Part shown: positions 167-39,216 of the stretch, one piece after another
Layout: each line of letters opens with the position of its first letter
Numbering within the stretch: position 1 is the first letter of the stretch
NCBI GenBank assembly: GCA_003152105.1
Contig: PLZJ01000002.1
Coordinates: 848,112-912,111, forward strand
From: Candidatus Levyibacteriota bacterium
GTDB lineage: Bacteria; Patescibacteriota; Microgenomatia; Levybacterales; UBA12049
Reading direction: 5' to 3'
DNA length: 64,000 nt
Made by a program: the position numbers and the translations under genes
Notes under the pieces: model-generated
The model's database searches: none
Seen by the model: only the letters and a program-made list of their open reading frames with translations
What the model was told of the DNA's origin: nothing

Positions 167-1681
167 TTAAACAAAACCGGGAAAGAAATCTTTTTTAATT
201 TGCTTTTCAGAAATTCCCATGCTACGAAGTGTTTGATCATATGCGTCAATCATAACATGTGGACCAGACAAGAAAAAGATTCTGTCTTTATAATCGGGAA
301 TTTCTTGTGTAATCATATTTTGATCTATTCTACCCAATCTTCCCGCCCAGCTTGTTAAGACAGCTTTTGTGTCAGTTAAGGTGTAAATAACCTTAATTCC
401 TAATTCTTTTTGAGCCATAGTAAATATATCACTATATACAATTTCATCTTGCGTTTTATTCGAGTACAAAAGGGTAATCGTTCTTTTTTCTTTTGTATCC
501 AACAAATATTTAATCATACTTCTAAATGGGGTAATACCAATGCCTCCTGCAATAAACACTAATTTTTTTGATGAATCTTTTGGAAGTGTAAAATCACCGC
601 TTAATTGGGCACCAATAATGGGAGTTTTATTATCCATCAAAAGCATTGCTTTTTTGTATGAACTCCCATTTTGATAAAATTTTACACCAAGTTTAATCTC
701 ATCTTCAGTAGGTGAGGAAGCAATAGTAAAATATCTCCTATTTCCACGACTATCAGTGTGTTTATGGGCAAAAGTCCATTCCATATATTGACCTGGAGAA
801 AAAGCCAATTTTTTGCTTGGCAAAAACAAGAATTCAAATATATCTGGAGCAAGTCTTATTTTTTGCTGCAGTGTAGAAAATATTTTAAATTTTGGAGAAA
901 CAAAATAGGCGTATATATTACCAGCAATAAGTGCCAATTCTGGTGTTGTATAAAAACTACCAATGTGGAATTGAGGCGCAAATAATATACCAACAATGAT
1001 GCCATATATTGCCTGTAATTTTTTGGTTGGAGGTGTTGTTAATGGTTCTGTTAGCATAACAAATGCAAAAAAGCATAGTGCAGTTGATAGGATAGTCTCT
1101 TTTAAAACAAGCAAAATATTACTCCCATTTACTACACTAAAACCTAAAATTGTTAGGAGTGTTGCAATGAAAAAATAGAATACCAAATCAAAACGTCTAA
1201 TTTTTCTCACTATTAAAAAACCAAGAAGCACAAAGGGCAGCATTGGCATAGTTCCAATCCACCAACTCGCAGATCCGTTAAATCCTATGGCCGTCAAAAC
1301 AACAGCTATTGCAACAGGATTGAAAATATGTTTTTTGTGAATTGTTAAAATATACTTTGAGGCAATTGAAAGCACTCCAGCAAAAAAGTACAGAGGTAAA
1401 TCTGAGAAAGATTTTATTGGCGAAATAATAAGAGAAAGTATTAACGCGGTAATGTATACAGATTCAACATTGGTTGGAACTGTATAAACATAAGAAAAAA
1501 GTTTGTTAGTCACCCAACATATAGCGGTAAGCAGTGAAGCTGATATGACAAGAAGCAATGGATTAAAGGGAAGTATGCCAAATATGCTATAAACAAACGC
1601 AACAAACAGTAGATACAATAAAAAATATAGTACTAATCGATACATTGTTATCGTATTTAATATGTCATCAATAAATTTCAT
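167..1681 (-). CDS. Membrane-anchored FAD/NAD(P)-binding oxidoreductase (ferredoxin-NADP reductase-like C-terminal domain fused to a polytopic N-terminal membrane domain)
   Basis: ~240-aa hydrophobic N-terminus with multiple predicted TM helices. C-terminal FAD-binding motif RRYFTIASSP (compare RLYSIASS) and NAD(P)-binding GxGxxP motif FIAGGIGITPF. Ends 3 bp from the FMN-binding protein gene. Confidence 0.6.
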   Translation of the reverse strand: MKFIDDILNTITMYRLVLYFLLYLLFVAFVYSIFGILPFNPLLLVISASLLTAICWVTNKLFSYVYTVPTNVESVYITALILSLIISPIKSFSDLPLYFFAGVLSIASKYILTIHKKHIFNPVAIAVVLTAIGFNGSASWWIGTMPMLPFVLLGFLIVRKIRRFDLVFYFFIATLLTILGFSVVNGSNILLVLKETILSTALCFFAFVMLTEPLTTPPTKKLQAIYGIIVGILFAPQFHIGSFYTTPELALIAGNIYAYFVSPKFKIFSTLQQKIRLAPDIFEFLFLPSKKLAFSPGQYMEWTFAHKHTDSRGNRRYFTIASSPTEDEIKLGVKFYQNGSSYKKAMLLMDNKTPIIGAQLSGDFTLPKDSSKKLVFIAGGIGITPFRSMIKYLLDTKEKRTITLLYSNKTQDEIVYSDIFTMAQKELGIKVIYTLTDTKAVLTSWAGRLGRIDQNMITQEIPDYKDRIFFLSGPHVMIDAYDQTLRSMGISEKQIKKDFFPGFV

Positions 1682-1683
1682 AC

Positions 1684-2223
1684 TTAGCTTTTTGCCTTAT
1701 TTAAGGCAGTTTGTAATGATTGCATGAATGCTTGACTAGAATCGGTAGCACCAGAAACGATATCTACATTTGCACTTTGCGCTTGTATTGCTTCTTGAGA
1801 GAGCAGTGGATCAGCTTGAGAATTTATAGCAACTGAAGTTCCCCGATCATTTGGATACTGCAAAAATTGAACGCTCGTAATTTTCCCATTGGAAATAGTT
1901 GCTTGTACTTGAATGAGCCCATAAAATGCATCTTCACTATCTCCAACAAACGTTCCATCTTTGTATGGAGAATTATTTTTAGGTTTTGGCGTAGGTGAAG
2001 GAGGTTGTGTTGCAGTTAGCGCTTGACTAACTTGCCCATTAGATACAGGTGTAGTAGGAGGAGAAGTAACAGTAGGTATACTGGTAGATATAGTAGGACT
2101 TGGATTAGTACTTATCGCTTTTGGGACAATAATTGGCAAAGCCTTATATCCAAACACTCGCTCATAGAATGAATACATAACAAATAGCATAATGACTGTT
2201 AATGAAAGAAGTATTTTTTTCAT
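1684..2223 (-). CDS. FMN-binding domain protein (extracytoplasmic, covalent-FMN acceptor type)
   Basis: N-terminal signal/anchor helix and Pro/Thr/Ser-rich linker. Carries the conserved DIVSGATDSS motif, which is the flavinylation-site consensus (SGAT) of NqrC/RnfG-type FMN_bind domains. Overlaps the ApbE gene by 4 bp. Confidence 0.6.
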   Translation of the reverse strand: MKKILLSLTVIMLFVMYSFYERVFGYKALPIIVPKAISTNPSPTISTSIPTVTSPPTTPVSNGQVSQALTATQPPSPTPKPKNNSPYKDGTFVGDSEDAFYGLIQVQATISNGKITSVQFLQYPNDRGTSVAINSQADPLLSQEAIQAQSANVDIVSGATDSSQAFMQSLQTALNKAKS

Positions 2224-2999
2224 AAAGTTGTATATTTATGCTTATGTGAATTTATATGATTGCGTGTGTAGCGATTAAACCCACTAGTAAATGTTGCAAT
2301 ACCATTTTTATCTATCATATACGCTTCGAAGCCCGGAAGATTTTCAAAAAAAATAATTCCATTTCTTTGCATTGCAAATGCTGCAGTTGCAAATCTATCT
2401 GCTTCAAGCACATTAGGTCCAATAACCGTAATGCTAACAATATCATCAAGCGAATCAGTTACCTGTAATGGATTATATATGTGTGTACCCCGAATATAAT
2501 TTCCGGATGTTGCTACGCCTTCATTTGCTATTTGTATTACTTTGATAATTTCATTAGTGTTAAATGGATTTTTAATTCCTACTGACCAGTTATTTCCATT
2601 TGTATTTTTACCATTAACCTGAATATCCCCACCTGCGTCAATATAAAAATTCTCAAATCCCATTTTCCGAAGCATTTTTGAAGCATTATATATTGACCAT
2701 CCTTTTACCACTCCAGAGGGATCTACTATTCCGTTATGTACTATATTAAAATATCCAAATGTTTCTTGATTTGTTTTCTCCGCAAGTTGAAGTATCTCCT
2801 GCATATCTTTGCTATAAGCATTTTCTTTTAATTTGTCATAATTTATAGCAGAAATTTCGCTCGTTTTTTTATATGTACTAAATTTATTGTCGACAGAATC
2901 AAAATAATTGAAAATTTGAAGTATTGAAGAAGCACTAGATCCCTTATCTAAAATTTCTATGGTAATTGGCATACCCATAATCCATTTCGTTTTTTTCAT
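2220..2999 (-). CDS. apbE: ApbE-family FAD:protein FMN transferase
   Basis: Motifs DPSGVVKGW and YIDAGGDIQVNG are typical of ApbE flavin transferases. Operonic with the FMN-binding acceptor protein. Confidence 0.7.
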   Translation of the reverse strand: MKKTKWIMGMPITIEILDKGSSASSILQIFNYFDSVDNKFSTYKKTSEISAINYDKLKENAYSKDMQEILQLAEKTNQETFGYFNIVHNGIVDPSGVVKGWSIYNASKMLRKMGFENFYIDAGGDIQVNGKNTNGNNWSVGIKNPFNTNEIIKVIQIANEGVATSGNYIRGTHIYNPLQVTDSLDDIVSITVIGPNVLEADRFATAAFAMQRNGIIFFENLPGFEAYMIDKNGIATFTSGFNRYTRNHINSHKHKYTTL

Positions 3000-3075
3000 A
3001 TATCTATATTAAATCATACTTTGTAATACTGAAAGTAAACTGAGGAAATGGTAAGAATATATTTTGTAAATGAAG

Positions 3076-3558
3076 TTACTTTTTTACACTTTTACCTTTA
3101 ACCTTTTCGTTCTTTTTATTCAAAACGATATAAAAAACTATTGCAATAATAATTGCAGCAAAAGAAAGCAATGAACCAAGTGGTATAGTGAAGAATCCAA
3201 ATAAAAGCAGTTGTTGAGTAGTGCAAGGAGCTGTTAGCGTACAAGGAGATATTACTTCTGGAATAATTTTGTAATATAACAAATTGTGATAAACAGCGAT
3301 TAAAAATCCACTAAAAGCCAGGGGGAGAGCATAATAAATAGCGTCAGTCTTTTTTTTAAGAAATCCTGTTAAAAAAATAAAAGGGAGAGGATACATAAAT
3401 ATCCTTTGATACCAACATAGCGCACAAGGAACAAAATGAGCGATTTCGCTAAAGTAAAGGCTCATTAGAGTAGCTATTGTTGCAATGCAAAATGAAAAGT
3501 ACTGAAGATAAATAAGATGTTTTTTTAAAAAACTCATGAATATAATTCTATTATACAA
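3076..3558 (-). CDS. dsbB: Disulfide bond formation protein B (DsbB/BdbC family)
   Basis: 160 aa with 4 predicted TM helices. CALCWYQR CxxC motif in the first periplasmic loop, plus a second Cys pair (CTLTAPC). Confidence 0.7.
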   Translation of the reverse strand: MYNRIIFMSFLKKHLIYLQYFSFCIATIATLMSLYFSEIAHFVPCALCWYQRIFMYPLPFIFLTGFLKKKTDAIYYALPLAFSGFLIAVYHNLLYYKIIPEVISPCTLTAPCTTQQLLLFGFFTIPLGSLLSFAAIIIAIVFYIVLNKKNEKVKGKSVKK

Positions 3559-3592
3559 AAAATGTCACATTTAACAACAGCGGTAAATGAGG

Positions 3593-4960
3593 CTATATAA
3601 ATAGGGAAACAATCGTTGCTATACCAGAAATTACCATAAATATTGTTGTTAACCAACCAATCATTGCGATAAAAGGCGGATTGACAAGTTCTTTTACCAC
3701 TTTTTTGCTGCTTGTCATTTGTACAATTAAGAAAAGTATTACTGGTGCGACTAGTCCATTTGCTACGGCTGAATAAATAAGCATTTTTATTGGATCAAAT
3801 CCTACAAAATTTAATGATAGACCTATTACCATTTGTAAAATAATAATGCCATAAAATGCTCGTGCATCCTTTAACTTTCTATATAATCCCTGTTTCCATA
3901 AAAAACTTTCAGAAATAGTATATGCAGCTGAACCTGCAAGTACAGGAATTGCAAGTAAGCCCATTCCTACAATTCCAAGACCAAATAGTAAAAACGCATA
4001 TTGCCCTGCGAGTGGTCGAAGCGCTAGTGCTGCCTGTGCAGCTGTTGAAATATTTTTAATACCATGCGTGTAAAGAACTGCAGCACATGTTGCAATAATA
4101 AAAAACATGACTGCATTTGAAAGAAACATTCCTGACCAGACATCTATTCTCATTTTTCGAATTTCTTTTTTTGAAACACCTTCTTGTCGAAGACGAATAG
4201 ATGTTTTTCCATGGAGTATTTCTTCTTCCACCTCATGAGAGGTTTGCCAAAAAAATAAGTAGGGAGATATTGTGGTTCCGAGTATGGCAGTAATTAGAAA
4301 AAATTGACCTTTTGAAAATGTAAGAGAAGGTATAACTAAATGATAAAATAACTGTTTTGGATCAATACCAACAATTAGTGCTGTTATTACATAAGAAAAT
4401 AATACAAGTACTAAATATTTTAAGTATTTAGCATATCTCTCATAAGGAGTAAATATCTGAACAAGTAGAACAAAAAGTGTAAAAAATATCGCAAGCACTG
4501 CAAAATTAAATTGTGGAGCAAATAATTTAACTCCCTCAGCCATTGCCCCTAAGTCTGCACCAATGTTTAGCGTATTTGCAATGAAAAGCAGTATTCCGCA
4601 TGTATAAAGAACCCATTTGGGATAATTTATACGTATATTTCCCGCAAGTCCTCGTCCAGTCATAAGCCCAATTCGGGCACACATTTCCTGTACAACAGCC
4701 ATTAACGGAAATGTGAATAATGACAACCATAACAATTGAAATCCGTATTGTGCACCGGTTTGAGAGTAGGTTGCAATCCCTGAAGGATCATCATCAGCTG
4801 CCCCTGTAACTAGTCCAGGTCCTAAACTTGTCCAGTAACCGTGTGCTTTCTTAACTTGCTTATGAGAAAGCGCAGAATCAGTAATTTTTTTTCCCGCATC
4901 AATACTTTTTTCGAGCATGAAAGAAGGTGCTTCTGCAATTTTTTCAATAGTATTGTCCAT
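3593..4960 (-). CDS. NRAMP-family divalent cation transporter (non-canonical metal-site residues)
   Basis: TM1 signature GPGLVTGAADDDPSGIATYS (NRAMP DPGN-like). ~11 predicted TM helices. The TM6 region TISPYLFFWQTSH lacks the canonical A-M-x-P-H. Confidence 0.75.
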   Translation of the reverse strand: MDNTIEKIAEAPSFMLEKSIDAGKKITDSALSHKQVKKAHGYWTSLGPGLVTGAADDDPSGIATYSQTGAQYGFQLLWLSLFTFPLMAVVQEMCARIGLMTGRGLAGNIRINYPKWVLYTCGILLFIANTLNIGADLGAMAEGVKLFAPQFNFAVLAIFFTLFVLLVQIFTPYERYAKYLKYLVLVLFSYVITALIVGIDPKQLFYHLVIPSLTFSKGQFFLITAILGTTISPYLFFWQTSHEVEEEILHGKTSIRLRQEGVSKKEIRKMRIDVWSGMFLSNAVMFFIIATCAAVLYTHGIKNISTAAQAALALRPLAGQYAFLLFGLGIVGMGLLAIPVLAGSAAYTISESFLWKQGLYRKLKDARAFYGIIILQMVIGLSLNFVGFDPIKMLIYSAVANGLVAPVILFLIVQMTSSKKVVKELVNPPFIAMIGWLTTIFMVISGIATIVSLFI

Positions 4961-5004
4961 ACTATAATTAAAGAGTATATTTTTTAATAAAGCAAGAAAG
5001 AGTA

Positions 5005-7554
5005 TTAATTAACAGGTTTAATAGCGTGAATATTCATTTTGTAATACCAAACTTTTGCTATATCTAAGGCAATAAAATAAACAACGGTTATAACAAGTAT
5101 ATAAGAAAATGTCGAAAAAGAAAGTGAAGTAAATGAAAATAGATGCGCAATAGATGGCACGTAGACAAATACTATTGCCAGTAAAAATACAAAAACTGTT
5201 GAAATAGTTAAAAGAAATGATGGGTTTTTTCCTTTCCAAAAATAATCAGTATTACGAATAGAAAATATAACTATTAATTGTATAAATGTTAAAAATAAGA
5301 AAATACTGCTTTCTGTTACATTTGATACGCGCAGATGGGTAGTGGCAAAAAAAATAAATTCAAAAAACATTGTCAAACTTCCAAGTAATAATGAAATAAA
5401 CATTAATGAATGGATATTAAAAAGTTGTGGTTTTCTAACTTGGTAATTATTTATATTATCAGAGTAGATAAAAATATGAGGTAAATCAGTAATAAGACTT
5501 GTTAATAAGAGTTGTACGGGAAGTAGTGGCAAAGCAGACGAGAGCAAATATAATCCGGCCAGTGCAAAGAAATTCCCGAAATTACCAACCATAGTATATT
5601 TAATATACTTATTAATATTCACAAAAACTCCTCTGCCTGCCTTAATACCATTAATAATAACTTCTAAATCACTTCGAAGAAGAAGTATTTCAGCACTATC
5701 TTTTGCCACATCAGATGCACTTGAAACGGCAATCCCAACATCTGCAAGTTTAAGTGATGGGGCATCATTAATACCATCACCTTGATAACCTACAACAAAC
5801 TGTTTTTTGAGCGCTTCGATAATTGCATATTTTTGAATGGGAGTTACCTGTGCAAATATAGGATTGGCTATTACAGCATTAGAAAAATCTTCTGGGTTCA
5901 TTTTCTGTAATTCTTCACCTGTATATATCTTATCTGTTGACTTTAGTAAACCTACTTCATTTCCAATAAATCGCGCTACATCTTTACTGTCTCCAGTTAA
6001 AATCTTAATTCCTACTCCTAAGCGCTGTGCAAGCTCAATGGTTCTTTTTGAAGTTGGTCTAAGAGGATCTACCAATTTTGCATATCCTAAAAATTGAAGC
6101 TTGTTTTCATGCTTTAGTATTGAAAAGTTACCTTTATATGCAATTTGCTTATATGCTATGCCAATATTTCTCATTCCTGACTTACTATCTAAACTAAGTT
6201 GCTTATGAATACTATGTTTTTTTGTATAGTTACTCAAAGTGAGTAATGTTTCTGTAGCGCCAATTACTACCAAGTAATATTTTTTGTCTTTTATATCTTG
6301 TATTATCAACCTTCTTCTTCTTGCTTCAGGATCAAATGATAAATCCTCAATTTGTTTAAATCGTTTTGCCTGTTCTTGAGTTTGATTATCTATATATGTT
6401 TTAAATGCATGATCATACGGATCTCGCAAGTGATTTTTTTTCTCGTTTGCAAATGCAATTGCAGCAATTGCAAATTCTTGAAATAATTTCGAATTCTCAG
6501 AAACAATTTCATTTATGCTAATTGCATTTTGTGTGAGTGTGCCTGTTTTATCGGTACATAGTAATGTAATATTTCCTAAGTCTTCAAGTGAAGAAAGTCT
6601 TTTAACAATTACATGTCGTTTTGCAAGATGAAGAGCACCTTTAGCAAGTGTAACGGTTGCAATGACTGGCAACGCTTCTGGGATTACCGCAATTGCTAAT
6701 GCAATAATAAAGAGAAAGTAGGTGGAAATATGACCTAAATCATGAGTAATTAATAATTTCGCGATAAATATTATAAGTAGTGTAAATAACGTGATGCGCA
6801 TTAAATAAGAGCTAAATAGTGAAAGAGATTTTTCATATTGGGTAATTTTACGAGTATTCGTAGAAAGCACTGCAATTGCACCAAGTTCTGTAGCTCCTCC
6901 CGTTGCATAGACAATGCCAATTCCCTCTCCCTGTTCGATAATGCTGCCTGCAAAAAGCAAATTAGCATAAGCTTTGCCATTTACAGTTGTACTATTTTTA
7001 CTACTTAGCTTGGAAACATTTGTTGACTCACCTGTTAACTGTGATTCGTTAACACTTAAACTATCTGAAGATAATAATCTAACATCTGCTGGAACTATAT
7101 CTCCTTCTTTGACAATAACAATATCTCCAGGAACTAGTACTTTTTCGTCGATTAGTACGTTTTTATTATCTCTTTTAACCAGTATTTCATGGCTAATTAA
7201 TTTTGAAAGTTCTTCAACTGCTTTTTCGCTTTTAAATTCTTGGTAAAACCCAAGTAGTGCATTTATAAAAAGTATTGCAATAATAACTAAACTATCTGAA
7301 TAGTCTCTCAGTAAAAACGATAGAAGAGCTGCTATTAACAATAAATAAATAAGTGAACTTGCAAATTGTTTTAATAATAATTGGAGTATATTAGTTTGTG
7401 TTTTTTTGAATACATTTTGACCATAAAAATGCAGTGCATTTGTTACTTGATCAATGGAAAGACCATTTTCATTCGAATGAAAATGAGCATATAACTGGTC
7501 AAGCGTACTTTTCGAAGCAATATCTTTATGCATATAATAATCATACATCAGCAA
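5005..7554 (-). CDS. Cation-transporting P-type ATPase (P2/P3-type, Mg2+/Ca2+-like)
   Basis: Phosphorylation motif CTDKTGTLT, hinge GDGINDAPSLKLADVGIA and TM4 PEALP motif. 849 aa. Confidence 0.85.
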   Translation of the reverse strand: MLMYDYYMHKDIASKSTLDQLYAHFHSNENGLSIDQVTNALHFYGQNVFKKTQTNILQLLLKQFASSLIYLLLIAALLSFLLRDYSDSLVIIAILFINALLGFYQEFKSEKAVEELSKLISHEILVKRDNKNVLIDEKVLVPGDIVIVKEGDIVPADVRLLSSDSLSVNESQLTGESTNVSKLSSKNSTTVNGKAYANLLFAGSIIEQGEGIGIVYATGGATELGAIAVLSTNTRKITQYEKSLSLFSSYLMRITLFTLLIIFIAKLLITHDLGHISTYFLFIIALAIAVIPEALPVIATVTLAKGALHLAKRHVIVKRLSSLEDLGNITLLCTDKTGTLTQNAISINEIVSENSKLFQEFAIAAIAFANEKKNHLRDPYDHAFKTYIDNQTQEQAKRFKQIEDLSFDPEARRRRLIIQDIKDKKYYLVVIGATETLLTLSNYTKKHSIHKQLSLDSKSGMRNIGIAYKQIAYKGNFSILKHENKLQFLGYAKLVDPLRPTSKRTIELAQRLGVGIKILTGDSKDVARFIGNEVGLLKSTDKIYTGEELQKMNPEDFSNAVIANPIFAQVTPIQKYAIIEALKKQFVVGYQGDGINDAPSLKLADVGIAVSSASDVAKDSAEILLLRSDLEVIINGIKAGRGVFVNINKYIKYTMVGNFGNFFALAGLYLLSSALPLLPVQLLLTSLITDLPHIFIYSDNINNYQVRKPQLFNIHSLMFISLLLGSLTMFFEFIFFATTHLRVSNVTESSIFLFLTFIQLIVIFSIRNTDYFWKGKNPSFLLTISTVFVFLLAIVFVYVPSIAHLFSFTSLSFSTFSYILVITVVYFIALDIAKVWYYKMNIHAIKPVN

Positions 7555-7759
7555 GAATTCTAATTACAATCGATGACAAGGAATTTTTGCACATTGACAG
7601 GCTTAGCTATGAGTTCTACAATTTAAAAAGAGGGAAAACAGGAGAAGAAAAATAATGGAAGACGACGATTATTACCGTAAAGTAAGTTTTGTTTTTATCT
7701 GTTACTAAGTCTACGTTATTATTTTTCTTCCCCCCTTTTTCTGTATTGGAGATAGTAGT

Positions 7760-8947
7760 ATGTTGTATTTATCTCAGCTTTTGAAAAAGAAAATTTTTTA
7801 TGGAAACACTTCACTAGTTAGTATTAGTGATTTTACTGTGTCTGGCGATCCAAAATCTCCATATATAACAAATCTTTTAGTTAAAAAATCGAGAAAGAAA
7901 TACTTAATTCCCGCAGATTCAGTTACTTACGATCAGGTGCAAAATCGTTTTACTGCTAAAAAGGAGGAGCTTGATTTTAAAGAAAGTAATGATACATATT
8001 TTTATCTTGTTGAAGATTTGTTAGATAAACAAGTAATAGACATAACTGGTAAAAGATTAGTTCGAGTAAACGACATAATACTTGAAGTAAATGGGAAATT
8101 AAAAATTACTGGAATTGATATTGGACTGTCTGGCATTACCAGAAGACTTGGGCTTAATTTTCCAAAACGAATCATCACGATTCCTTGGTCAGTAATTGAA
8201 GCATTTGATTATCAAACTGGAGATGTAAAAATAAAATTAAGTGAAAGTAAATTAAACACCCTTCATCCTGCTGAACTGGCTGATATTTTAGAAGAAGTTG
8301 GAACAAAAGAAAGAGAAGGAATAGTTGAAATTTTAGATGCAGAACAAGCTGCTTCAGCTATTGAAGAGGCAAATGAAGATACACAAGAAGCAATTATTGA
8401 GCATCTACCAACACCACAGCTTGAAAAGGTTCTTGAAAAAATGCGTACATCAGAAATTGCTGATGTTATTGATGAAGTGAATGAACATACATTTAAAAAA
8501 ATCTTGAAAATTCTTGGAAATGATCGAGCAAAAAATGTCGAAAACTTATTACGATTTCCAGACGATTCTGCAGGAGGGTTAATGCATTTATCCTTTTATA
8601 AGGAAAAGGGGGACAAAACAATTGGTGAAGTATTAGGACATCTTTCAAAAATTAAAGTACAACCCGAAGCAATTGTTGTTATTGATGATAATGATCTGCT
8701 TTTAGGTCAAGTACATGCTAATGAATTAATTAATATTGATCCCAATCTTCCCCTTAATAAACTCGTCACAACTTCTTACTCAGTTGATCAATATGCATCC
8801 TTTTCCTTAATACTTCGAAAATTCGCTGAATATAATCTTCGCGTTCTACCGGTAATTGATGAAAACAATAAAGTAATTGGAGTAATAACAATTGACGCAG
8901 TACTTCATAGGATAGAAGAGGAAAAAGAACATGCTGAGACGCTTTAA
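7760..8947 (+). CDS. Stand-alone MgtE cytosolic module (PRC-barrel-like N-terminus + MgtE-N domain + CBS pair) with no channel domain
   Basis: Acidic MgtE-N-like helical region (AELADILEEVGTKEREGIVEILDAEQAASAIEE...) followed by a CBS-pair-like region. No TM segments. The stop overlaps the start of the downstream NRAMP gene. Confidence 0.65.
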   Translation: MLYLSQLLKKKIFYGNTSLVSISDFTVSGDPKSPYITNLLVKKSRKKYLIPADSVTYDQVQNRFTAKKEELDFKESNDTYFYLVEDLLDKQVIDITGKRLVRVNDIILEVNGKLKITGIDIGLSGITRRLGLNFPKRIITIPWSVIEAFDYQTGDVKIKLSESKLNTLHPAELADILEEVGTKEREGIVEILDAEQAASAIEEANEDTQEAIIEHLPTPQLEKVLEKMRTSEIADVIDEVNEHTFKKILKILGNDRAKNVENLLRFPDDSAGGLMHLSFYKEKGDKTIGEVLGHLSKIKVQPEAIVVIDDNDLLLGQVHANELINIDPNLPLNKLVTTSYSVDQYASFSLILRKFAEYNLRVLPVIDENNKVIGVITIDAVLHRIEEEKEHAETL

Positions 8948-10175
8948 ATATCAACTAATTCGAATTGCCCCCATTTTACTCGTAATAGGTCCTGGCATCA
9001 TATCAGGTTCTGTTGATAATGATGCGGGAGGAATAACAACCTATTCAGTCGCAGGTGCACAATTTGGAACCACACTTCTTTGGGTGTTATTTCTAACAAC
9101 ATTTTCACTTGCAGTAACGCAGGAAGTAGGGGCAAGACTTGGCATTGCAACAGGAAAAGGTCTTGCTGCATTAATTCGAGAAAAATTTGGGGTTCGATGG
9201 ACTACGTTTATCATGATAGTTCTCCTAATAGCAAATTTAGGTACAATTGCTGCTGAATTTGCAGGTATTGCTGCAGCTTTACAAATAGTTGGTATGAGTA
9301 AATTCATAAGTGTTCCACTCGCAGCAGTAATCATATTTTTGCTCGTTACAAAAGGAAGTTTTAAAAGACTGGAGAAAATATTCTTAGTAGCATCGGCATT
9401 TTATATAGTGTATGTAATCTCTGCATATCTTGCACATCCTAACTGGACTAACGCATTTAAAGATCTGGTTATTCCAACATTTTCAGCAAATAAAGCGTAT
9501 TTATTAACACTTATTGCAGTCATAGGAACTACTATAACGCCATGGGGTCAATTTTTTATACAAGATTATGTTGTTGATAAAAAACTTTCAAAAGAGGACA
9601 TGAAAATTGAAAGAGGAGATGTGTTTTTTGGATCATTTATCACAAATATTATTTCGTTTTTTATCATAGTTGCTTGTGCGGCAACGCTATATACTCATGG
9701 AAGAGTAATTCAAGACGCAGCAGATGCAGCCGTTGCTCTTCAACCGTTTGCAGGACATTTTGCAACGATTTTATTTGGTCTTGGTCTCTTTAATGCTTCA
9801 ATATTTGGTGCTGCACTCGTTCCAATTTCAACATCCTATGTTATTACTGAAGCATTTGGTTTTGAATCTGGTCTTGATCATGGTTTTTCAGAAGCACCGG
9901 AATTTTATGGTTTATTTGCATTTTTATTAATTATCGGAGGCTTACTCGTTGTCCTTCCATTCCTGCCACTTCTTACTATTTTATTTGTAAGTCAAGCAGT
10001 GAATGCAATACTCCTTCTCCCCATATTTATATTTCTCTTACTTCTTTCAAATGACAGTAAATTATTAAATGGGTATTCAAACGGGAAATTTGTAAATACT
10101 ATCCTTCTTGTTACTATGTTTGCATTAGCTATTGCTTCAATTGCCTACTTTATTTCAATTTTTGTAACATTTTAA
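8931..10175 (+). CDS. NRAMP-related transporter (short, non-canonical; candidate NRMT-like Mg2+ transporter)
   Basis: GPGIISGSVDNDAGGITTYSVAGAQFG aligns to NRAMP TM1 but has DNDAGG instead of DPGN. Polytopic. Translationally coupled to the MgtE-N/CBS protein. Confidence 0.65.
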   Translation: MLRRFKYQLIRIAPILLVIGPGIISGSVDNDAGGITTYSVAGAQFGTTLLWVLFLTTFSLAVTQEVGARLGIATGKGLAALIREKFGVRWTTFIMIVLLIANLGTIAAEFAGIAAALQIVGMSKFISVPLAAVIIFLLVTKGSFKRLEKIFLVASAFYIVYVISAYLAHPNWTNAFKDLVIPTFSANKAYLLTLIAVIGTTITPWGQFFIQDYVVDKKLSKEDMKIERGDVFFGSFITNIISFFIIVACAATLYTHGRVIQDAADAAVALQPFAGHFATILFGLGLFNASIFGAALVPISTSYVITEAFGFESGLDHGFSEAPEFYGLFAFLLIIGGLLVVLPFLPLLTILFVSQAVNAILLLPIFIFLLLLSNDSKLLNGYSNGKFVNTILLVTMFALAIASIAYFISIFVTF

Positions 10176-10178
10176 TAA

Positions 10179-10709
10179 CTACTCTTTCTCATACACATTT
10201 TTATGTAAAAATCGAGAAAGAGCAAACGCTACACCATGTTCAACACCACTTGCTCTTGTAACATATTCTTTTGTCATGATGCCAAACATACCAATTCCTG
10301 AACCAATTTTGGTAGTTCCAAATAATTCGTCAATTGCTTCTTCTAAATTTTTACCTTTTTTAATATTATTTATGACTATATTTGGCAACACAAGACCGCC
10401 TGAAGATCCAATACCTATTGCTCCTTTTTTATCTGTTATAACTACAAGTGATCGCTCCATCCAACCAAAAGTATATTCATGTAGTCCACCTTCAATTCCT
10501 ACTCCGTAAGTTGCTCCTTTAACTTTTTTAAGTGCCTCTTTTGCTCTTTGATAAGCTCCCTTATATATTTCTTCATCACTTAATGGCTGATCTGAAACTC
10601 CTGAAGAAACTGTTACTCCTATCACTTGACACTTACCAAACTGCTTAGTAAAAACCTTCTTTACAGGTTGAGTTTTAGTTGGATTAATTGATCCGACTGC
10701 AATTATCAT
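10179..10709 (-). CDS. yjjX: Inosine/xanthosine triphosphatase (YjjX/DUF84 non-canonical NTPase)
   Basis: 176 aa. The N-terminus MIIAVGSINPTKTQPVKKVF and overall pattern match the YjjX family. Confidence 0.55.
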   Translation of the reverse strand: MIIAVGSINPTKTQPVKKVFTKQFGKCQVIGVTVSSGVSDQPLSDEEIYKGAYQRAKEALKKVKGATYGVGIEGGLHEYTFGWMERSLVVITDKKGAIGIGSSGGLVLPNIVINNIKKGKNLEEAIDELFGTTKIGSGIGMFGIMTKEYVTRASGVEHGVAFALSRFLHKNVYEKE

Positions 10710-10800
10710 TTACGTCAGTATAGCAAAAACTCGTAGTCAAAAAGCGCATAATTCTATTAGACATTAGATATTGATGACTGTATACTAAATAGAGAATTAT

Positions 10801-11598
10801 ATGAATGACACGATCGTACAAGTTACGGGACTCACCAAAAAATTTAAAGATTTCACTGCAGTTGATAATATTACATTTTCAGTTCCAAAGGGAGAAATAT
10901 TTGCGTTTTTGGGACCAAATGGTGCAGGAAAAACAACCACAATTAAAATGCTCACTACGCTGCTTCTTCCTACTTCTGGGACAATTCTGGTAAATGGTCA
11001 TAATGCAGTAACTGATCAACATGACGTTAGAAAATCCTTTGGCATTGTGTTTCAAGATCCAAGTTTGGAAGATGAATTAACGACATACGAAAATATGGAA
11101 TTTCATGGCGTTTTATATAGTATTCCAAAAGAGGAACGAAAAATCAGAATTAAATCACTTCTCACATTCGTGGAGCTATGGGATAGGAAAGATAGCTTAG
11201 TTAAAACCTTTTCAGGTGGAATGAAAAGAAGATTAGAAATTGCCAGAGGTCTTCTTCATCATCCAAAAATATTTTTCCTTGATGAACCAACACAAGGACT
11301 TGACCCGCAAACAAGAAATCATATTTGGAGTTATCTTAAAAATTTAAGTAGCAAAGAGGGGATAACAATTTTTTTTACTACGCACTATTTGGAAGAAGCA
11401 CAAGAATATGCAGATAGAATTGCGATAATGGATCATGGACATATCGTTACTGAAGGAACATTAAAAACATTACTCAAACAAACAAAAAAAGCAACACTTG
11501 AAGAAGCATTTTTATCACTTACAGGAAACGATATACGTGAAGAATCCGCAAGTGGAATAGACGCATTAAGGCGTCATAGACAAATGAGAGGAAGATAA
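10801..11598 (+). CDS. ABC transporter ATP-binding protein
   Basis: Walker A GPNGAGKTT, ABC signature FSGGMKRRLEIARGL and Walker B FFLDEPTQGLD. Confidence 0.85.
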   Translation: MNDTIVQVTGLTKKFKDFTAVDNITFSVPKGEIFAFLGPNGAGKTTTIKMLTTLLLPTSGTILVNGHNAVTDQHDVRKSFGIVFQDPSLEDELTTYENMEFHGVLYSIPKEERKIRIKSLLTFVELWDRKDSLVKTFSGGMKRRLEIARGLLHHPKIFFLDEPTQGLDPQTRNHIWSYLKNLSSKEGITIFFTTHYLEEAQEYADRIAIMDHGHIVTEGTLKTLLKQTKKATLEEAFLSLTGNDIREESASGIDALRRHRQMRGR

Positions 11599-16249: not shown

Positions 16250-17215
16250 TAATTTTAGTATCTATTATCTAAGCTTTTAATACTCTTACCTCGGCTACTT
16301 GCCTAAGCAGTTGATCAAACATATTTTCTTTTAAGCTCCTATGGTTATATCTCCAAGCATATTCATCAGCATAGGTTTGTAAATATTTCTTAGATACTAT
16401 TCTGTATACTCCATAAACACCACGTTTTAGTATTGACCAGAAGTTTTCTACATTTTGTGTATGAATAGTGCCTTTCACATATTGCTTAGCTCTATGATTA
16501 ACTGATAGATGTTCATACCCATATTTATATAGCTGGGTATATCCTCTCCACTCATCTGTTATTACTTTAGCTTTTGGATTAATATGTTCCTGTACTTGGT
16601 TAAGTAGTGTCCATTTACCGGTATTAGGTATGTGCTTAAGATAAATTTTTTTATTTTCTGACTTTCCTTTAGTTGATTCGTTTCGCTTTACCATTCCAAG
16701 TATTATTTCTTTTTCTTTCCCTTCTATCCCTTGTCTCCATTTATGTGCTCTGTTTATTCCTTTTCCTCCCATAAATGTTTCATCAACTTCGATTGTTCCA
16801 TCAGAGAATGAAGTCGATGGTTCTGCCATTAACTTTCGTATTTGTTTAAACATTCTATGTGCAGTCTTGTACGTTACTCCTAGTTCTCGCTCAAGTTGTT
16901 TTGCAGATATACCAGACCTTGTATGAGTCATTTGAAACATGGCATAAAACCAAAATTGAAGAGGGGTTGTTGTTTTTTCAAAGATAGTTCCAGCAAGAGG
17001 AAATACTTGATATCTACAGATACCACAGGAATATGCAGTACGACCATTTATTTTGTAAAAAGTAGTTATCTTTTGACAGCTTGGACACGTTATTCCATTT
17101 GGCCATCTGATATTTTTTATTTCATCGAGACAAGTATTTTCTGTGGAGTATTTTTGAAGAAATATTTTGAGGGTAAACTTTTGTATCATAGCCTTATATT
17201 AACACACATTTACCG
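16250..17215 (-). mobile_element. IS1595-family insertion sequence (boundaries approximate)
   Basis: Single transposase ORF. Terminal inverted repeats could not be defined by eye. Confidence 0.45.
16269..17189 (-). CDS. IS1595-family (ISXO2-like) transposase
   Basis: N-terminal transposase zinc-ribbon CPSCQK...CGICRY followed by a DDE_Tnp_IS1595-like region. Confidence 0.8.
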   Translation of the reverse strand: MIQKFTLKIFLQKYSTENTCLDEIKNIRWPNGITCPSCQKITTFYKINGRTAYSCGICRYQVFPLAGTIFEKTTTPLQFWFYAMFQMTHTRSGISAKQLERELGVTYKTAHRMFKQIRKLMAEPSTSFSDGTIEVDETFMGGKGINRAHKWRQGIEGKEKEIILGMVKRNESTKGKSENKKIYLKHIPNTGKWTLLNQVQEHINPKAKVITDEWRGYTQLYKYGYEHLSVNHRAKQYVKGTIHTQNVENFWSILKRGVYGVYRIVSKKYLQTYADEYAWRYNHRSLKENMFDQLLRQVAEVRVLKA

Positions 17216-28536: not shown

Positions 28537-28571
28537 AGTTTAGAAGCTAAATCAACTATAGGACTAATTGC

Positions 28572-28643
28572 TGCGGAGCTAGGATTCGAACCTAGAGTCG
28601 CGCTGATCCAAAGTCAGGCGTGTTGCCATTACACCACTCCGCA
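28572..28643 (-). tRNA. tRNA-Gln: tRNA-Gln (anticodon UUG)
   Basis: Minus-strand sequence UGCGGAG..CCUGA CUUUGGA UCAGC..CUAGG UUCGAAU CCUAG CUCCGCA folds as a cloverleaf. U1:A72 pair is typical of bacterial tRNA-Gln. Perfect 5-bp T-stem with T-loop GTTCGAATC. Anticodon loop CUUUGGA gives UUG. CCA is not encoded. Confidence 0.75.
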
Positions 28644-34420: not shown

Positions 34421-35041
34421 TTAAGGATCTCCCTCAATAAAAGTTCTCGGATTTACGGGTATATTAAATACGTCAATTTCAAAATGTAAATGTGGTCCTG
34501 TTGCCCAACCTGTTTCCCCCTCTTTTCCTATAATTGTCTGCCCTGCAACCACTTTATCTCCTTTTTGAACGTTTCTTTCACTTAAATGCCCATAAAGTGA
34601 GACTATATTATTCCCATTATCAATAACAATATGATTTCCATACCCCCAGTTAATCTCATCTGAATAAATAACAGTCCCACTTATAGCAGCAACAATTGGA
34701 GTGCCTTCAACATTTGCGATATCTATGCCTGTATGAAGAGGTTGGTATGGTAGGTCATTTGCACCAAATTCAAGCGTTACAACTCCATGTAATGGCCAGG
34801 TAGAGGTAATAGGAACAGTTGCTATAACTTTGCCAGTTATGGGATCATGGATATCAACATTATGTGTGTGAGTATCTTGACTTACTAATTGATCAGAAAC
34901 AATCTGTATACCTGCATTAGTTAAAATAAAAATAGAAAAAATAGGAATGGTAAAAAGAAGGATAAAAGTTAAACTGACAATTTGGAATTCACGCTTAAGA
35001 GAGTGAATTGCCATTATGCTTTTTAAAAGATTAGGATTCAC
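34421..35041 (-). CDS. M23-family peptidase (LytM-like), membrane anchored; probable T4SS cell-wall hydrolase
   Basis: HTGIDIA (HxxxD) and HLHFEI (HxH) motifs. N-terminal TM. Overlaps the VirB4-like gene. Confidence 0.8.
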   Translation of the reverse strand: MNPNLLKSIMAIHSLKREFQIVSLTFILLFTIPIFSIFILTNAGIQIVSDQLVSQDTHTHNVDIHDPITGKVIATVPITSTWPLHGVVTLEFGANDLPYQPLHTGIDIANVEGTPIVAAISGTVIYSDEINWGYGNHIVIDNGNNIVSLYGHLSERNVQKGDKVVAGQTIIGKEGETGWATGPHLHFEIDVFNIPVNPRTFIEGDP

Positions 35042-36851
35042 GTATTACTTGCCTCTCAGAAGGATCTGTAGTAATGAGAGGATGCTCTTTTTCAGCTGCA
35101 ACTACTTTTATTGCAACGTGATTTTGATCAGCAATAATTAGCGCTTCACCCTTGTCGCAAGTTAATAAGAACTTTTGTTCATACTCAGATAAATTAAATT
35201 CTTTGGCTACATTTGTAATAGTGGTGGTGTCTTGACGCATTAGTATTCGAAGAGAACTTTGCGAAGCAATTGCTTTACCGTATTCATTATTTAAAAAGTC
35301 ATTTGCCTGCTGTGAAATAATAGAAACCCCTAAATAGTACTTTCTTGCTCGTCTTACAAGTCCTGCAACAAATCTAGCGCTTTCCTGGTGCTCAAGTAGC
35401 ATCCATCCCTCATCAATTACAAGTAAACGCTTGGCAATGTTACTTTTTACCTGGTTATAGACAAAGTTGGAAAGTACAACCATCATTATTTGCCTCAATG
35501 ACTCTGGTAAATCTTTAATATCAAAAATGATTAATCTGTTATTTAATTTAATATTTGTTTTACTATCAAATACACTCGAGAGTGACCCTTTGACATATTT
35601 TTCAAGTCTTGAGCAAAGATCTTTTTCCTTGAGCTCTTTAAGCGTTTTGTAAAGGTCTTTAAGAAGTGGATACTCTTTACCCTTTTTAGCTCCATTTAAT
35701 GAAAAACCCAACTTTTTGTACGTTTGTATAATCGCTCGGTCAAGTACTGCCTTTTCATTAGGGGATAATCCCTCTGCCATAAGAGAAATGATTTCAGTTA
35801 AATCTTGAATATGCATTGACAAAGTTTCATCTTGCGTTAAAGAAAGATCAAAGGGATTGATCTTTTCATTAGATTTTGCAGAAAGTTTTATATATGTTCC
35901 GTTTACTGATTTTGTTAATTGTGCATATTCGCGCTCCGGATCAATAACAATTACTTTAGTTCCTTGCATGAGCTGTCTTAAAATCTCAACTTTGGCTGTA
36001 TATGACTTTCCAGACCCGGATTGAGCAAAAATTATCGAATTAGCGTTGTGTAAAGAAAACCGATCAAGTATGACAAGCGAGTTATTTGATCTGTTTATTC
36101 CATAGAGTATTCCTTTGTCTTGTACAAGTTCTGAGGAAACAAATGGAAAAGTTAAAGCTGCAGTAGAACTATCTAAATTTCTTTTTTGGTTTAGCGCGTT
36201 ATCAGCCCTTGGAAGTACTGAAGTTAAACCGAGTAACTGTTGAAATGTTGCAGTTTTGGTGTAAAAAAGGCGTGTTGCCATAACAGTATTAAGTAGTTTT
36301 GTCTTTTTGTTGAGTTCATTTAATGAATCGGCAAAAAGTGCGATGTAAATCGACACCTGAAAGAGTTTTTCTTGACCTCGAAGTATTTTATTTTTAAGAT
36401 CAACAGCAGATTGAAGTGGATCTAAAATTTCTGTTCCTACAATACTTCCATTCTTTGTTCGTGCGCGCTTAATTGATTCAAACTCAGTAATCTTCCTGGT
36501 AAGTTTTGGAATTGCACTTGATGCTTCAATTTGTTCTATATGGTAAGAAATATCAGCATTATGATTAAAATTAATCAGCATGTTTAACCAACCAGAAGTT
36601 GCGTTGTAGGGGTAACCCGAAATAAATAATACTCTAATGTATTTATCATCAATGTAGAGGTAACTTTTCTCATTTAGGAGTCCTGAGTAGGAAATGTGAT
36701 CGATTATATCTTGTGTTCCAAATTCAAACTTTAAAGCCTCTATCTTGGCTTTCTTATTCTTTCTTCTTTTCTTTAACTTTTTGGTAACTTTGTTAAAGTT
36801 ATTAAAGCTTGAATAGATGTTTGTATAAATGTTAGATATTAGTTGATCCAT
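35031..36851 (-). CDS. VirB4-like conjugative transfer ATPase
   Basis: Walker A AQSGSGKSY, VIDPEREY and Walker B LLVIDEGWML. Sits in an operon with T4SS membrane components. Confidence 0.75.
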   Translation of the reverse strand: MDQLISNIYTNIYSSFNNFNKVTKKLKKRRKNKKAKIEALKFEFGTQDIIDHISYSGLLNEKSYLYIDDKYIRVLFISGYPYNATSGWLNMLINFNHNADISYHIEQIEASSAIPKLTRKITEFESIKRARTKNGSIVGTEILDPLQSAVDLKNKILRGQEKLFQVSIYIALFADSLNELNKKTKLLNTVMATRLFYTKTATFQQLLGLTSVLPRADNALNQKRNLDSSTAALTFPFVSSELVQDKGILYGINRSNNSLVILDRFSLHNANSIIFAQSGSGKSYTAKVEILRQLMQGTKVIVIDPEREYAQLTKSVNGTYIKLSAKSNEKINPFDLSLTQDETLSMHIQDLTEIISLMAEGLSPNEKAVLDRAIIQTYKKLGFSLNGAKKGKEYPLLKDLYKTLKELKEKDLCSRLEKYVKGSLSSVFDSKTNIKLNNRLIIFDIKDLPESLRQIMMVVLSNFVYNQVKSNIAKRLLVIDEGWMLLEHQESARFVAGLVRRARKYYLGVSIISQQANDFLNNEYGKAIASQSSLRILMRQDTTTITNVAKEFNLSEYEQKFLLTCDKGEALIIADQNHVAIKVVAAEKEHPLITTDPSERQVIRES

Positions 36852-37446: not shown

Positions 37447-37921
37447 GAATTACTCCTTTCTTATCCGGTATAAGACGAACTTCTTTTCCTTCTATAAATA
37501 ACCGCTCAAAAGCTAATTGGTCAGTTGGAGAATATATTACTTCCTCGACTTCTTTTTCCTTCTTTGCTTTTTTGGTCTTTTTCTTAATTTCATTTTTAAG
37601 GAAACTTAAATCACGCATTGAAGTATCATTTTTGTTAAATAAGTACATTCTTGGAGACAAATAATAAATAGCAATAACAAGTAACCAGTTAAAAATGACT
37701 CTTCCTTTAAGACGAAGTGAGAGAATAAATAGTATTCCTGGAACTAGAATGATAAGTGGTATTTTGTATGGTTCAAGCTCCATGCTTTTAGGAAGAACTG
37801 TATAAATCCCTGCACCTGAAAACAAAGCTATGGTTAATAGAGATATTTGCAGCATTGATAAGTTACCGGCAATTTTATCTTCAACTGTTGTAATTTGAGC
37901 AGGTACTACTGTTGTTTTCAT
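37430..37921 (-). CDS. Small 2-TM membrane protein (VirB3/PrgI-like candidate)
   Basis: Two adjacent TM helices followed by a Lys-rich cytosolic tail. Operon position between the VirB6-like and VirB4-like genes. Confidence 0.35.
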   Translation of the reverse strand: MKTTVVPAQITTVEDKIAGNLSMLQISLLTIALFSGAGIYTVLPKSMELEPYKIPLIILVPGILFILSLRLKGRVIFNWLLVIAIYYLSPRMYLFNKNDTSMRDLSFLKNEIKKKTKKAKKEKEVEEVIYSPTDQLAFERLFIEGKEVRLIPDKKGVIRATIA

Positions 37922-39216
37922 ATAGCAACCCTCCTGGCAGGTTTTTTAACTGGCTCAGATGTTCCATAACTATCTTCCGTGTTTTCTTCTTTCTTAGCAG
38001 ATATTACATTAATAAGTTGTGAGCCTACTGCTTTGAACGCACCATTAACTGATGTGTAAAAAGCCATTTGTCCAAGCACTCCTGGAATTTTAAGAAGCGA
38101 AAAGAAAATTCCAACAGCAATAAGAATTGATATTAATGAATTGGTTCCACTTTGCGAAGAAACTGTTAAAAATGAAGACGCCAGTTGAATAGTAACTACA
38201 TGGATAAATACAGTAAAAATGGTTACCATATATGATTTAGCAGCAATCTTTGCAAAATCAGAAGTTCCAGGAAGCGCCCACATGAGAAAAATAAGAGGAG
38301 ATAAAACTGCACCCAGTGAAATGGTTATTAATCTTCCTATGTAATACAAGAGAAGAATAATTGTTAATATAATAAACAGTAGCATAAAAATAAGTGTAAT
38401 TAAGGGAGTGTTATTGGAAACAATAGTTGTTGGATCAAAAGCAGAAAGTACCCAAGCTCCTGTTATTCCACCAGTTGCATTTAAAACTGCCTTAATCATT
38501 GTGTTGCAAAGTGTAATTATCCGATCAATTAAAAATATGGATATGTTTGCTCCAAGAAACGCTAGGACGATCCTACTCATTACTTGTTTTAAATCTATAT
38601 CTTCATATCCAAAAGCTGAGGCACTCATAACATGAAATCCTAAAAGCGCAATAATTACGGCAAATAGCGAGTCGGTAATACCAAGAATAACCAACCAAAA
38701 GTTAAATACAACAGAATTTGTTGCAAGTTGAGGAGTTGTGGTTAAAAAAGTTATAACTCCATCAACAAGTGGTTTTGTTGCTGATTGGATAACATTTTGC
38801 AGTACGCCAACAAACGCGTCAATTAAGACCTGTGCAAGCCCTCCAGAGGGAGTTGCGGGCTGAATTGGAGTAAGTGATAGTCCACCTGTGTTAGAAGGTG
38901 AAATAGGTGTTTCAAACGCATGAGAAAGAATTGCAGTTATTGTTCCAGCACCGATAATAAAGACAAGACCAATTAAAGCGTTTCTAATTGTCTTTTTTGC
39001 TTTGACCAGGTTTTCTGGATTTCCAGACGAGGTTATATATGAATAACCACCCTTAACAAGAAACAGTCCTGATACAAAAGTACCAAGAAGCGTTAATGTA
39101 CCAAGTAAATCTGTTGTATATGGTTGTACGTCTGCGTTAGTTATGGCCATTGCATGAGATGGTACAAGAAGTAATCCTGCCCACAACACGGATAAGATAA
39201 GTAAAAACTTTTTCAT
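37918..39216 (-). CDS. VirB6-like polytopic T4SS membrane protein with an N-terminal pilin-like domain
   Basis: Signal peptide plus many TM helices. N-terminal ~100 aa (KGGYSYITSSGNPENLVKAKKTIRNALIGLVFIIGA) is paralogous to the upstream 110-aa pilin-like protein. Confidence 0.5.
   Translation of the reverse strand: MKKFLLILSVLWAGLLLVPSHAMAITNADVQPYTTDLLGTLTLLGTFVSGLFLVKGGYSYITSSGNPENLVKAKKTIRNALIGLVFIIGAGTITAILSHAFETPISPSNTGGLSLTPIQPATPSGGLAQVLIDAFVGVLQNVIQSATKPLVDGVITFLTTTPQLATNSVVFNFWLVILGITDSLFAVIIALLGFHVMSASAFGYEDIDLKQVMSRIVLAFLGANISIFLIDRIITLCNTMIKAVLNATGGITGAWVLSAFDPTTIVSNNTPLITLIFMLLFIILTIILLLYYIGRLITISLGAVLSPLIFLMWALPGTSDFAKIAAKSYMVTIFTVFIHVVTIQLASSFLTVSSQSGTNSLISILIAVGIFFSLLKIPGVLGQMAFYTSVNGAFKAVGSQLINVISAKKEENTEDSYGTSEPVKKPARRVAI

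Follow-up and report, generated by a model that had tools for sequence, protein, structure and literature searches.

A free-standing PRC-MgtE_N-CBS protein encoded with an NRMT-type permease as a candidate Mg2+-responsive brake in a Patescibacteria-like genome

We analyzed a 64,000-nucleotide (nt) stretch of DNA from Candidatus Levyibacteriota bacterium (contig PLZJ01000002.1, forward-strand positions 848,112 to 912,111; G+C content, 33%), which we refer to as the window. The subject of this study is a gene pair on its plus strand that encodes a 395-amino-acid (aa) accessory protein and a 414-aa NRAMP-related permease. Upstream of the pair, on the minus strand, lie the genes for a P-type ATPase and for a second NRAMP-related permease, here called NR2, and a 205-nt divergent control region is common to all four genes. 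These four open reading frames (ORFs) had been proposed in an initial annotation made from the sequence alone, and all of them are present (Table 1).

The accessory protein carries the cytosolic part of the Mg2+ channel MgtE without its membrane part. Pfam detected both MgtE_N and CBS in the 395-aa protein (expectation value [E] of 6.4e-10 for CBS), and a scan of the C-terminal part alone resolved two CBS stretches, whereas the MgtE pore domain (PF01769) had no Pfam match in this protein. Against the NCBIfam mgtE model (TIGR00400), the protein covers only cytosolic positions 19 to 256 of 450 and scores 103 bits, compared with a cutoff of 232.75. It aligns collinearly with the cytosolic domain of T. 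thermophilus MgtE (2yvy; E = 6e-22), and its C terminus lies nine residues past the CBS match; thus, it contains neither the plug helix nor the pore. An AlphaFold model of the protein (25 homologs; predicted local distance difference test [pLDDT] score of 85) matched structures of the MgtE cytosolic domain in Foldseek searches (E of ~1e-17) and matched CBS pairs as well. These four lines of evidence bear out the initial annotation, which had described an acidic MgtE-N domain and a CBS pair without the MgtE pore, and the acidity is reflected in a computed isoelectric point (pI) of 4.5 for the MgtE_N part. The resemblance to the T. thermophilus domain (2YVY/2YVX) therefore comprises the N domain and CBS pair, collinear over MgtE positions 14 to 255, the acidic character, and the fold. 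The accessory protein differs from T. thermophilus MgtE in the missing plug helix and pore, in an additional N-terminal tandem PRC module, and in the replacement of most Mg2+ ligands and ATP-site residues. Homologs are numerous (3,496 at E ≤ 1e-5). Among the 120 matches listed, all are 372 to 411 aa long with essentially the same architecture, 117 have a precomputed PRC match, and the source names, where given, are mostly Patescibacteria, Levybacteria, or Saccharimonadales. Overall, this architecture spans hundreds to thousands of sequences across phyla.

The initial annotation overlooked the tandem PRC module that occupies residues 1 to 165. Barrel 2 was detected directly by Pfam as a PRC barrel at residues 83 to 163 (E = 1e-7). 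A comparison of barrel 1 with barrel 2 by hhalign, which would reveal an internal duplication, was not significant (E = 0.25); barrel 1 was thus assigned through a structure search and through a collinear alignment with an Eggerthellaceae homolog, whose residues 2 to 70 are a Pfam PRC domain (E = 8e-12). A model of residues 1 to 165 (pLDDT, 83; predicted template modeling [pTM] score, 0.78) had the archaeal tandem-PRC structure CdpB1/CdpB2 (8QZO) as its best structural match (E = 1.7e-5; template modeling score of 0.58 to 0.61), followed by single PRC barrels. CdpB1/CdpB2 shares only ~11% identity with the module and has neither MgtE_N nor CBS, so the likeness is one of fold. The PRC module, within the block from residue 80 to residue 151, is the most conserved region of the accessory protein, rather than the metal-binding part, and contains the invariant pattern FYLxEDLLDKQVIDxxGxRxVRVND...IDxxxxGxxRRL...PW..EAFDY.

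A profile of the PRC sensor module retrieved 725 cluster representatives at E ≤ 1e-10, most of them 390 to 440 aa long. Three proteins of ~600 aa (P0383, P0456, and P0503) have the identical order of tandem PRC, MgtE_N, and CBS, followed by an MgtE pore domain (PF01769 scores of 46.5, 37.2, and 35.7 bits, respectively). In these proteins the module is fused to the pore, whereas the window encodes it as a separate protein alongside an NRAMP-fold permease. The same sensor module thus occurs both attached in cis to a Mg2+ channel and, in trans, beside an NRAMP-fold carrier. We read the fusion to MgtE pores as support for a regulatory role of the module on a transport protein; it also shows that PRC barrels are not confined to NRMT systems. 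Searches of the open-access literature for PRC barrels together with MgtE, or together with CBS domains and magnesium, found no papers.

The partner of the accessory protein is an NRMT-type permease. Among structures in the PDB, its best match was EleNRMT from Eggerthella lenta (7QIA; E = 1e-97), and canonical NRAMP structures matched at 1e-22 or weaker. The defining motifs of NRMTs are DxxG (helix 1) and TxxA/T (helix 6), in place of the DxxN and AxxM of transition-metal NRAMPs (Ramanadane et al. 2022, PMC8806188). Transmembrane helix 1 of the 414-aa permease reads DNDAGG, as the initial annotation had pointed out in place of the expected DPGN, and helix 6 reads GTTITPW; the signature is therefore D-A-G-G (DxxG) and G-T-T-I-T-P-W (TxxT). 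The permease has the EleNRMT-site residues D55, G58, E133, T224, W229, and Q379, together with Thr at 227, and these positions are conserved in 54 partner permeases, with D-A-G-G invariant among them. The proton-pathway histidines of helix 6b are replaced: Trp at position 229 stands for the first of them, and position 234 is Ile. Compared with EleNRMT, whose relatives are ~40% identical to the window permease, the fold and metal-site signature are the same, and the differences are Thr for Ala at 227, which is within the published TxxA/T, and Ile for Asn at 234. A canonical Mn2+/Fe2+ NRAMP of the MntH type (DPGN and A-x-x-M-P-H) is ruled out for both permeases of the locus by DAGG/TTITPW in one and DPSG/TTISPY in the other, and the scores of both against the NCBIfam MntH and nramp models are far under the cutoffs. 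By every sequence-level feature that could be tested, the 414-aa protein classifies as an NRMT. EleNRMT transports Mg2+ and Mn2+ but not Ca2+, does so without H+ coupling, and depends on Thr224 as a residue important for Mg2+ (PMC8806188). By analogy, we infer that the window permease would transport Mg2+ without H+ coupling. The initial annotation had spoken of an NRAMP-type channel, a term that does not fit, since EleNRMT-type proteins are uncoupled transporters and not channels.

The two genes form a tightly linked unit. They overlap by 17 nt in the window, where the codons GAAGAGGAAAAAGAA of the acidic tail also make up a Shine-Dalgarno-like run, in keeping with the translational coupling that had been proposed. 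We used the accessory protein to fetch 79 non-redundant related loci. An NRMT gene directly follows the accessory gene on the same strand in 58 of the 59 loci with at least 900 nt of downstream DNA, and the accessory and permease genes overlap in 61 of 72 non-redundant related loci, most commonly by 14 nt. The sole locus without an intact downstream NRMT gene, L086, carries fragmented and inverted accessory and NRMT copies (positions 208 to 4124) on a 4.5-kb contig, representing either decay or misassembly. Another locus, L096, has an accessory gene followed by two tandem NRMT genes (positions 7001 to 10804), and in L092, L094, L095, and L096, a cobalamin riboswitch lies a few kilobases downstream on the opposite strand. 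The association extends to the clade of EleNRMT itself: Eggerthellaceae proteins 91 to 93% identical to EleNRMT are preceded by a gene for a 450-aa PRC+MgtE_N+CBS protein, which aligns with residues 1 to 388 of the window accessory protein (27% identity; E = 3e-50). EleNRMT was studied without an accessory protein, whereas its close relatives have this gene upstream. Gene order, and usually also the overlap, is kept across Patescibacteria and Actinomycetota.

Such operons have been described before. Shin et al. (2014, PMC4072509) reported "mgtE-nramp operons" that pair an NRAMP-related Mg2+ transporter (NrmT) with a stand-alone homolog of the MgtE N-terminal cytoplasmic domain, found many of them under M-box riboswitches, took the M-box, which is not universal, to mark Mg2+ specificity, and speculated that the fragment exerts feedback control in the cytoplasm or serves as a metal chaperone. 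As in the C. acetobutylicum Ca_c0685 operon (PMC4072509), the MgtE-N-domain gene of the window adjoins the gene for an NRAMP-related Mg2+ transporter, with which it is co-transcribed in C. acetobutylicum; the accessory gene is immediately upstream wherever the order was stated or checked, and some members of the family, close relatives of the window among them, have an M-box. The window differs in that its accessory protein is encoded by one gene, compared with two in C. acetobutylicum, in that it has no M-box, and in its Patescibacteria-like host. By its description, the A. capsulatum pair ACP2976/ACP2977 (Shin et al. 2014) resembles it in being an accessory-NrmT pair without an M-box. The locus is thus an unexceptional copy of an NRMT operon type that is already published and occurs very widely. 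The initial annotation had presented the pair as an unusual two-component system, but both the pairing and the feedback idea have been in print since 2014 and the architecture is common. The gene pair and the sensor hypothesis being already known, this copy changes little; what is usefully added is the recognition of the tandem PRC module, of PRC-MgtE fusions, and of NR2 as a subfamily.

The region upstream of the operon connects the clade to Mg2+. In four close relatives, L020, L021, L022, and L099, the accessory gene is immediately preceded by a full-length M-box aptamer (108 to 115 bits). The accessory proteins of these relatives are 56 to 58% identical to that of the window; the three partner permeases that were aligned (L020 to L022) are 71 to 73% identical to the window permease. 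These M-boxes offer independent support for a role of the clade in Mg2+ homeostasis, and they back the Mg2+ link that had been suggested for the pair. The window, L018, L019, and L098 have no M-box. In the window, a promoter-like site ~137 nt upstream of the accessory gene gives a predicted leader of ~137 nt, and TTGACA-N17-CTACAAT stands at the aligned position in L018, the closest relative. The predicted leader fold has an energy of -34.2 kcal/mol (z = -2.4), and similar purine and pyrimidine tracts are found in L018. The four leaders without an M-box have essentially no consensus structure according to RNAalifold (4 pairs; -0.3 kcal/mol), so the purine/pyrimidine hairpin is specific to the window and L018. 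Within the predicted hairpin lies a tentative mini-ORF, MEDDDYYRKVSFVFICY, and a mini-ORF occurs at the same place in L018 (~960 to 1005), L019 (~6900 to 6960), and L098 (2735 to 2791), with the common start M-(L)-(E/N)-(E/K/D)-D-D. We regard the shared mini-ORF as a tentative lead rather than a finding, as a peptide and an RNA motif are inseparable with four sequences. In ~40 loci (for example, L009, L032, L053, and L076), GGGTTGACA-N17-CTACAAT is strongly conserved and ends ~7 nt before the accessory ATG, without a Shine-Dalgarno sequence, which suggests leaderless transcripts in most of the more distant relatives.

We consider it fairly probable that the accessory protein is a Mg2+-responsive brake acting in trans on an uncoupled NRMT importer, within an otherwise normal NRMT operon. 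This explanation, the best that we can offer, draws on homology, the coupling of the two genes, the riboswitches that precede the operon in relatives, and the MgtE variants that carry the module in cis, and the regulatory role itself is one that we infer from them. In this proposal, the permease would import Mg2+, and some Mn2+, down the membrane potential, and translational coupling would cause the accessory protein to be made in step with it. The accessory protein would sit at the cytoplasmic face of the permease and would reduce import at high cytosolic levels of Mg2+ or of some other ligand recognized by the acidic N/CBS module. A braking action is proposed because the same module acts in this way in cis in MgtE. 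As the M-box has been lost from this genome or was never present in it, control at the protein level would be the main brake.

Several observations weigh against this explanation. No M-box or other Rfam family was found around the window genes (positions 2900 to 11000), either at gathering thresholds or at E values up to 5. At the ligand sites, Asp235 of the accessory protein, which hardly varies among family members, aligns with MgtE Asp95 (the Mg6 site), but Asp95 is the only one of the listed acidic Mg2+ ligands of T. thermophilus MgtE to be kept at the aligned position: Glu59, Asp91, Asp226, Asp247, and Asp250 correspond to Ser, Ser, Asn, Ala, and His. At the ATP site of MgtE, Arg187, Asp188, and Phe227, the last of which stacks on ATP, are likewise replaced, by Asn, Glu, and Leu, so that MgtE-like ATP binding by the CBS pair is unsupported by the aligned residues. 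The acidic tail is conserved and lies near MgtE Glu258/Asp259; its conservation is ambiguous, however, because the tail codons double as the ribosome-binding site for the permease. A sensor mechanism therefore seems plausible, but it would not be transferable residue by residue from MgtE. The experimental record also argues against the proposal. Co-expression has been tested in one published case, in B. subtilis, where rescue by the A. capsulatum permease was no better when its accessory protein was made as well, with no added effect on Mg2+ rescue; the A. capsulatum permease behaved as a Mn2+ transporter in this host; and NrmT of C. acetobutylicum carried Mg2+ with no accessory gene present (PMC4072509).

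The A. capsulatum results bring in a second explanation, in which the pair serves mainly for the uptake of Mn2+ or another transition metal and the accessory protein senses that metal instead of Mg2+. A. capsulatum NrmT, which is accompanied by the accessory gene but not by an M-box, restored a mutant defective in Mn2+ uptake, and it rescued a Mg2+ transport defect only at low-millimolar Mg2+. EleNRMT also carries Mn2+ as well as Mg2+, and both the absence of an M-box from the window and the loss of most MgtE Mg2+ ligands would be consistent with a Mn2+ system. We nonetheless hold this explanation to be unlikely, although it retains some weight, given that the four close relatives described above have an M-box before the operon and that the permease site matches that of Mg2+-competent EleNRMT, Thr224 included.

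According to a further explanation, the accessory protein is not a gate but a factor for assembly, stability, or metal handling (a chaperone or a cytoplasmic acceptor of the incoming ion), or else a CBS-based responder to adenine nucleotides or to the energy state. A metal chaperone was raised as an alternative by Shin et al. (PMC4072509), adenosine ligands are common among CBS pairs, and ATP is bound by MgtE. The conservation pattern, with its maximum in the tandem PRC module, fits such a role, as do the structural matches of that module, since CdpB1/CdpB2, CdvA, the reaction-center H subunit, and RimM with protein S19 were all solved in protein assemblies. On the other hand, the residues of the MgtE ATP site are not conserved, with Phe227 replaced by an almost invariant Leu, and the module also exists as part of MgtE pore proteins, in which the homologous domains serve as a Mg2+-dependent gate. 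We therefore judge a role other than gating to be distinctly improbable and retain the trans-acting brake as the preferred explanation.

A stronger version of the brake can be imagined, in which the accessory protein is an obligate gate in trans that docks via its invariant PRC barrels on the permease, and perhaps on NR2, with the short acidic leader ORF and hairpin replacing the M-box as RNA-level control by Mg2+ in lineages that, like this one, lack it through loss. We give this version little credence. If true, it would make the permease the first LeuT-fold carrier to be governed by the sensor module of an unrelated Mg2+ channel. More generally, the near-constant presence of the accessory gene, the usual overlap, its occurrence in the EleNRMT clade, the PRC module, and the MgtE fusions make a direct regulatory complex a concrete and testable proposal, and they suggest that transport studies on NRMT alone may miss regulation.

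NR2, the second permease of the locus, is related to NRMTs but belongs to a separate subfamily. Its helix 1 reads DDDPSG and its helix 6 reads GTTISPY, which agrees with the earlier description of a DDDPSG motif and a helix 6 that departs from A-M-x-P-H. EleNRMT is again the best match in the PDB (E = 7e-46), and NR2 is 32% identical to the 414-aa permease. Among the 120 NR2 matches listed, identities range from 69 to 81%, and several carry the label Patescibacteria. Across these 120 homologs, the site consists of D-P-S-G, Asp or Asn for Glu133, and G-T-T-I-S-P-Y, with Ser227 invariant, and all 120 have Ala at the position of EleNRMT Gln379. In terms of the NRMT signature, NR2 retains DxxG, but it has TxxS in place of TxxA/T and Ala in place of Gln379. 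Because this fixed site differs and because the Q379A mutant of EleNRMT is strongly impaired, we place NR2 in a subfamily of its own. It is of interest as a very conserved protein, common in Patescibacteria, that naturally has Ala where EleNRMT needs Gln.

The P-type ATPase gene lies 44 nt upstream of the NR2 gene on the same strand, and the two are for this reason probably co-transcribed. The ATPase, confirmed as a minus-strand gene with the PEALP and DKTGT motifs, aligns end to end with MgtA (8uy7; E = 1e-105, compared with 3e-95 for a Ca-ATPase); in helix 4, it has PEALP where MgtA has PEMLP. Its NCBIfam scores are 474 bits for the H+ type and 467 bits for the Mg type (TIGR01524; cutoff, 610.75), both under the respective cutoffs.

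These neighbors raise the question of whether both permeases and the ATPase form one co-evolved and co-regulated cation uptake island, as the initial annotation had proposed. The four genes share one divergent control region, and NR2-type genes adjoin the accessory-NRMT pair in 8 of the 55 loci with room for a neighbor, in varied orientations; in L018, NR2 is directly divergent from the accessory gene. Among solved structures, moreover, the ATPase is closest to MgtA. A homolog of the ATPase, however, is present in 0 of the 79 related loci, and in L017 NR2 occurs alone. Its absence from these loci rules out the ATPase as a conserved partner of the pair, and its adjacency is particular to this genome. 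The ATPase also scores under the cutoffs for both Mg2+ and H+ pumps, and NR2 has the Ala that strongly impairs EleNRMT. The idea of a cation cluster thus holds for the recurrent linkage of NR2 and fails for that of the ATPase, and a single uptake island is very doubtful. Of other Mg2+ transporters, no CorA or MgtE was found by Pfam among the window ORFs scanned, namely, those of the first 11 kb and 20 of the 27 ORFs of at least 200 aa in positions 14000 to 64000.

Table 1. Positions of the operon and its neighbors, of M-boxes in related loci, and of other features in the window
Feature	Position	Strand	Evidence or remark
Accessory gene, 395 aa: two PRC barrels, MgtE_N, and CBS pair, without membrane domain	7760-8947	+	
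Tandem PRC-barrel module, residues 1-165	7760-8254	+	Barrel 1, ~1-66; barrel 2, ~83-163
MgtE_N helical domain, residues 168-269, acidic	8261-8566	+	Pfam E = 1.2e-21; pI 4.48
CBS pair, residues 271-386, then acidic tail EEEKEHAETL	8570-8917	+	Pfam, Foldseek
Overlap of accessory stop and permease start, 17 nt	8931-8947	+	GAAGAGGAAAAAGAA codons of acidic tail, Shine-Dalgarno-like run
NRMT-type NRAMP-related permease, 414 aa	8931-10175	+	Pfam Nramp (PF01566) E = 4.6e-91
Promoter-like site, TTGACA-17 nt-TACAAT	7594-7622	+	Best sigma-70-like match in 3000-10900, 11/12; consensus match only
Leader (tentative)	7625-7742	+	Predicted pairing between purine tract 7625-7652 and pyrimidine tract 7722-7742
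Leader mini-ORF MEDDDYYRKVSFVFICY, 17 codons (tentative)	7655-7708	+	Inside predicted tract hairpin
P-type ATPase, 849 aa	5005-7554	-	Pfam; motifs PEALP, DKTGT; MgtA-like
NR2, second NRAMP-related permease, 455 aa	3593-4960	-	Pfam Nramp E = 1.7e-83
M-box, locus L020	6732-6903		
M-box, locus L021	6742-6913		
M-box, locus L022	1673-1843		
M-box, locus L099	5765-5934		
IS1595-family transposase	16269-17189	-	
tRNA	28571-28643		
TraG/VirB4-like ATPase	35031-36851		
TrbL/type IV secretion system pilin	37918-39216		
FtsK-like	41637-43211		
Coupling protein	56151-58811		
Large serine recombinase	59319-60959		

Downstream of NR2 on the same strand (positions 167 to 3558), the window encodes a DsbB-like protein, ApbE, an FMN_bind protein, and an NQR2/RnfD-like membrane protein to which an FAD/NAD-binding reductase domain is fused. 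A block of conjugation-type genes spans positions ~34400 to 62100 and, with the large serine recombinase and the tRNA (Table 1), looks like an integrated conjugative element. Positions 48287 to 51550 of the minus strand encode an unusual fusion protein of 1,087 aa, in which sigma-70 regions 2 and 4 accompany an SNF2/ResIII helicase.

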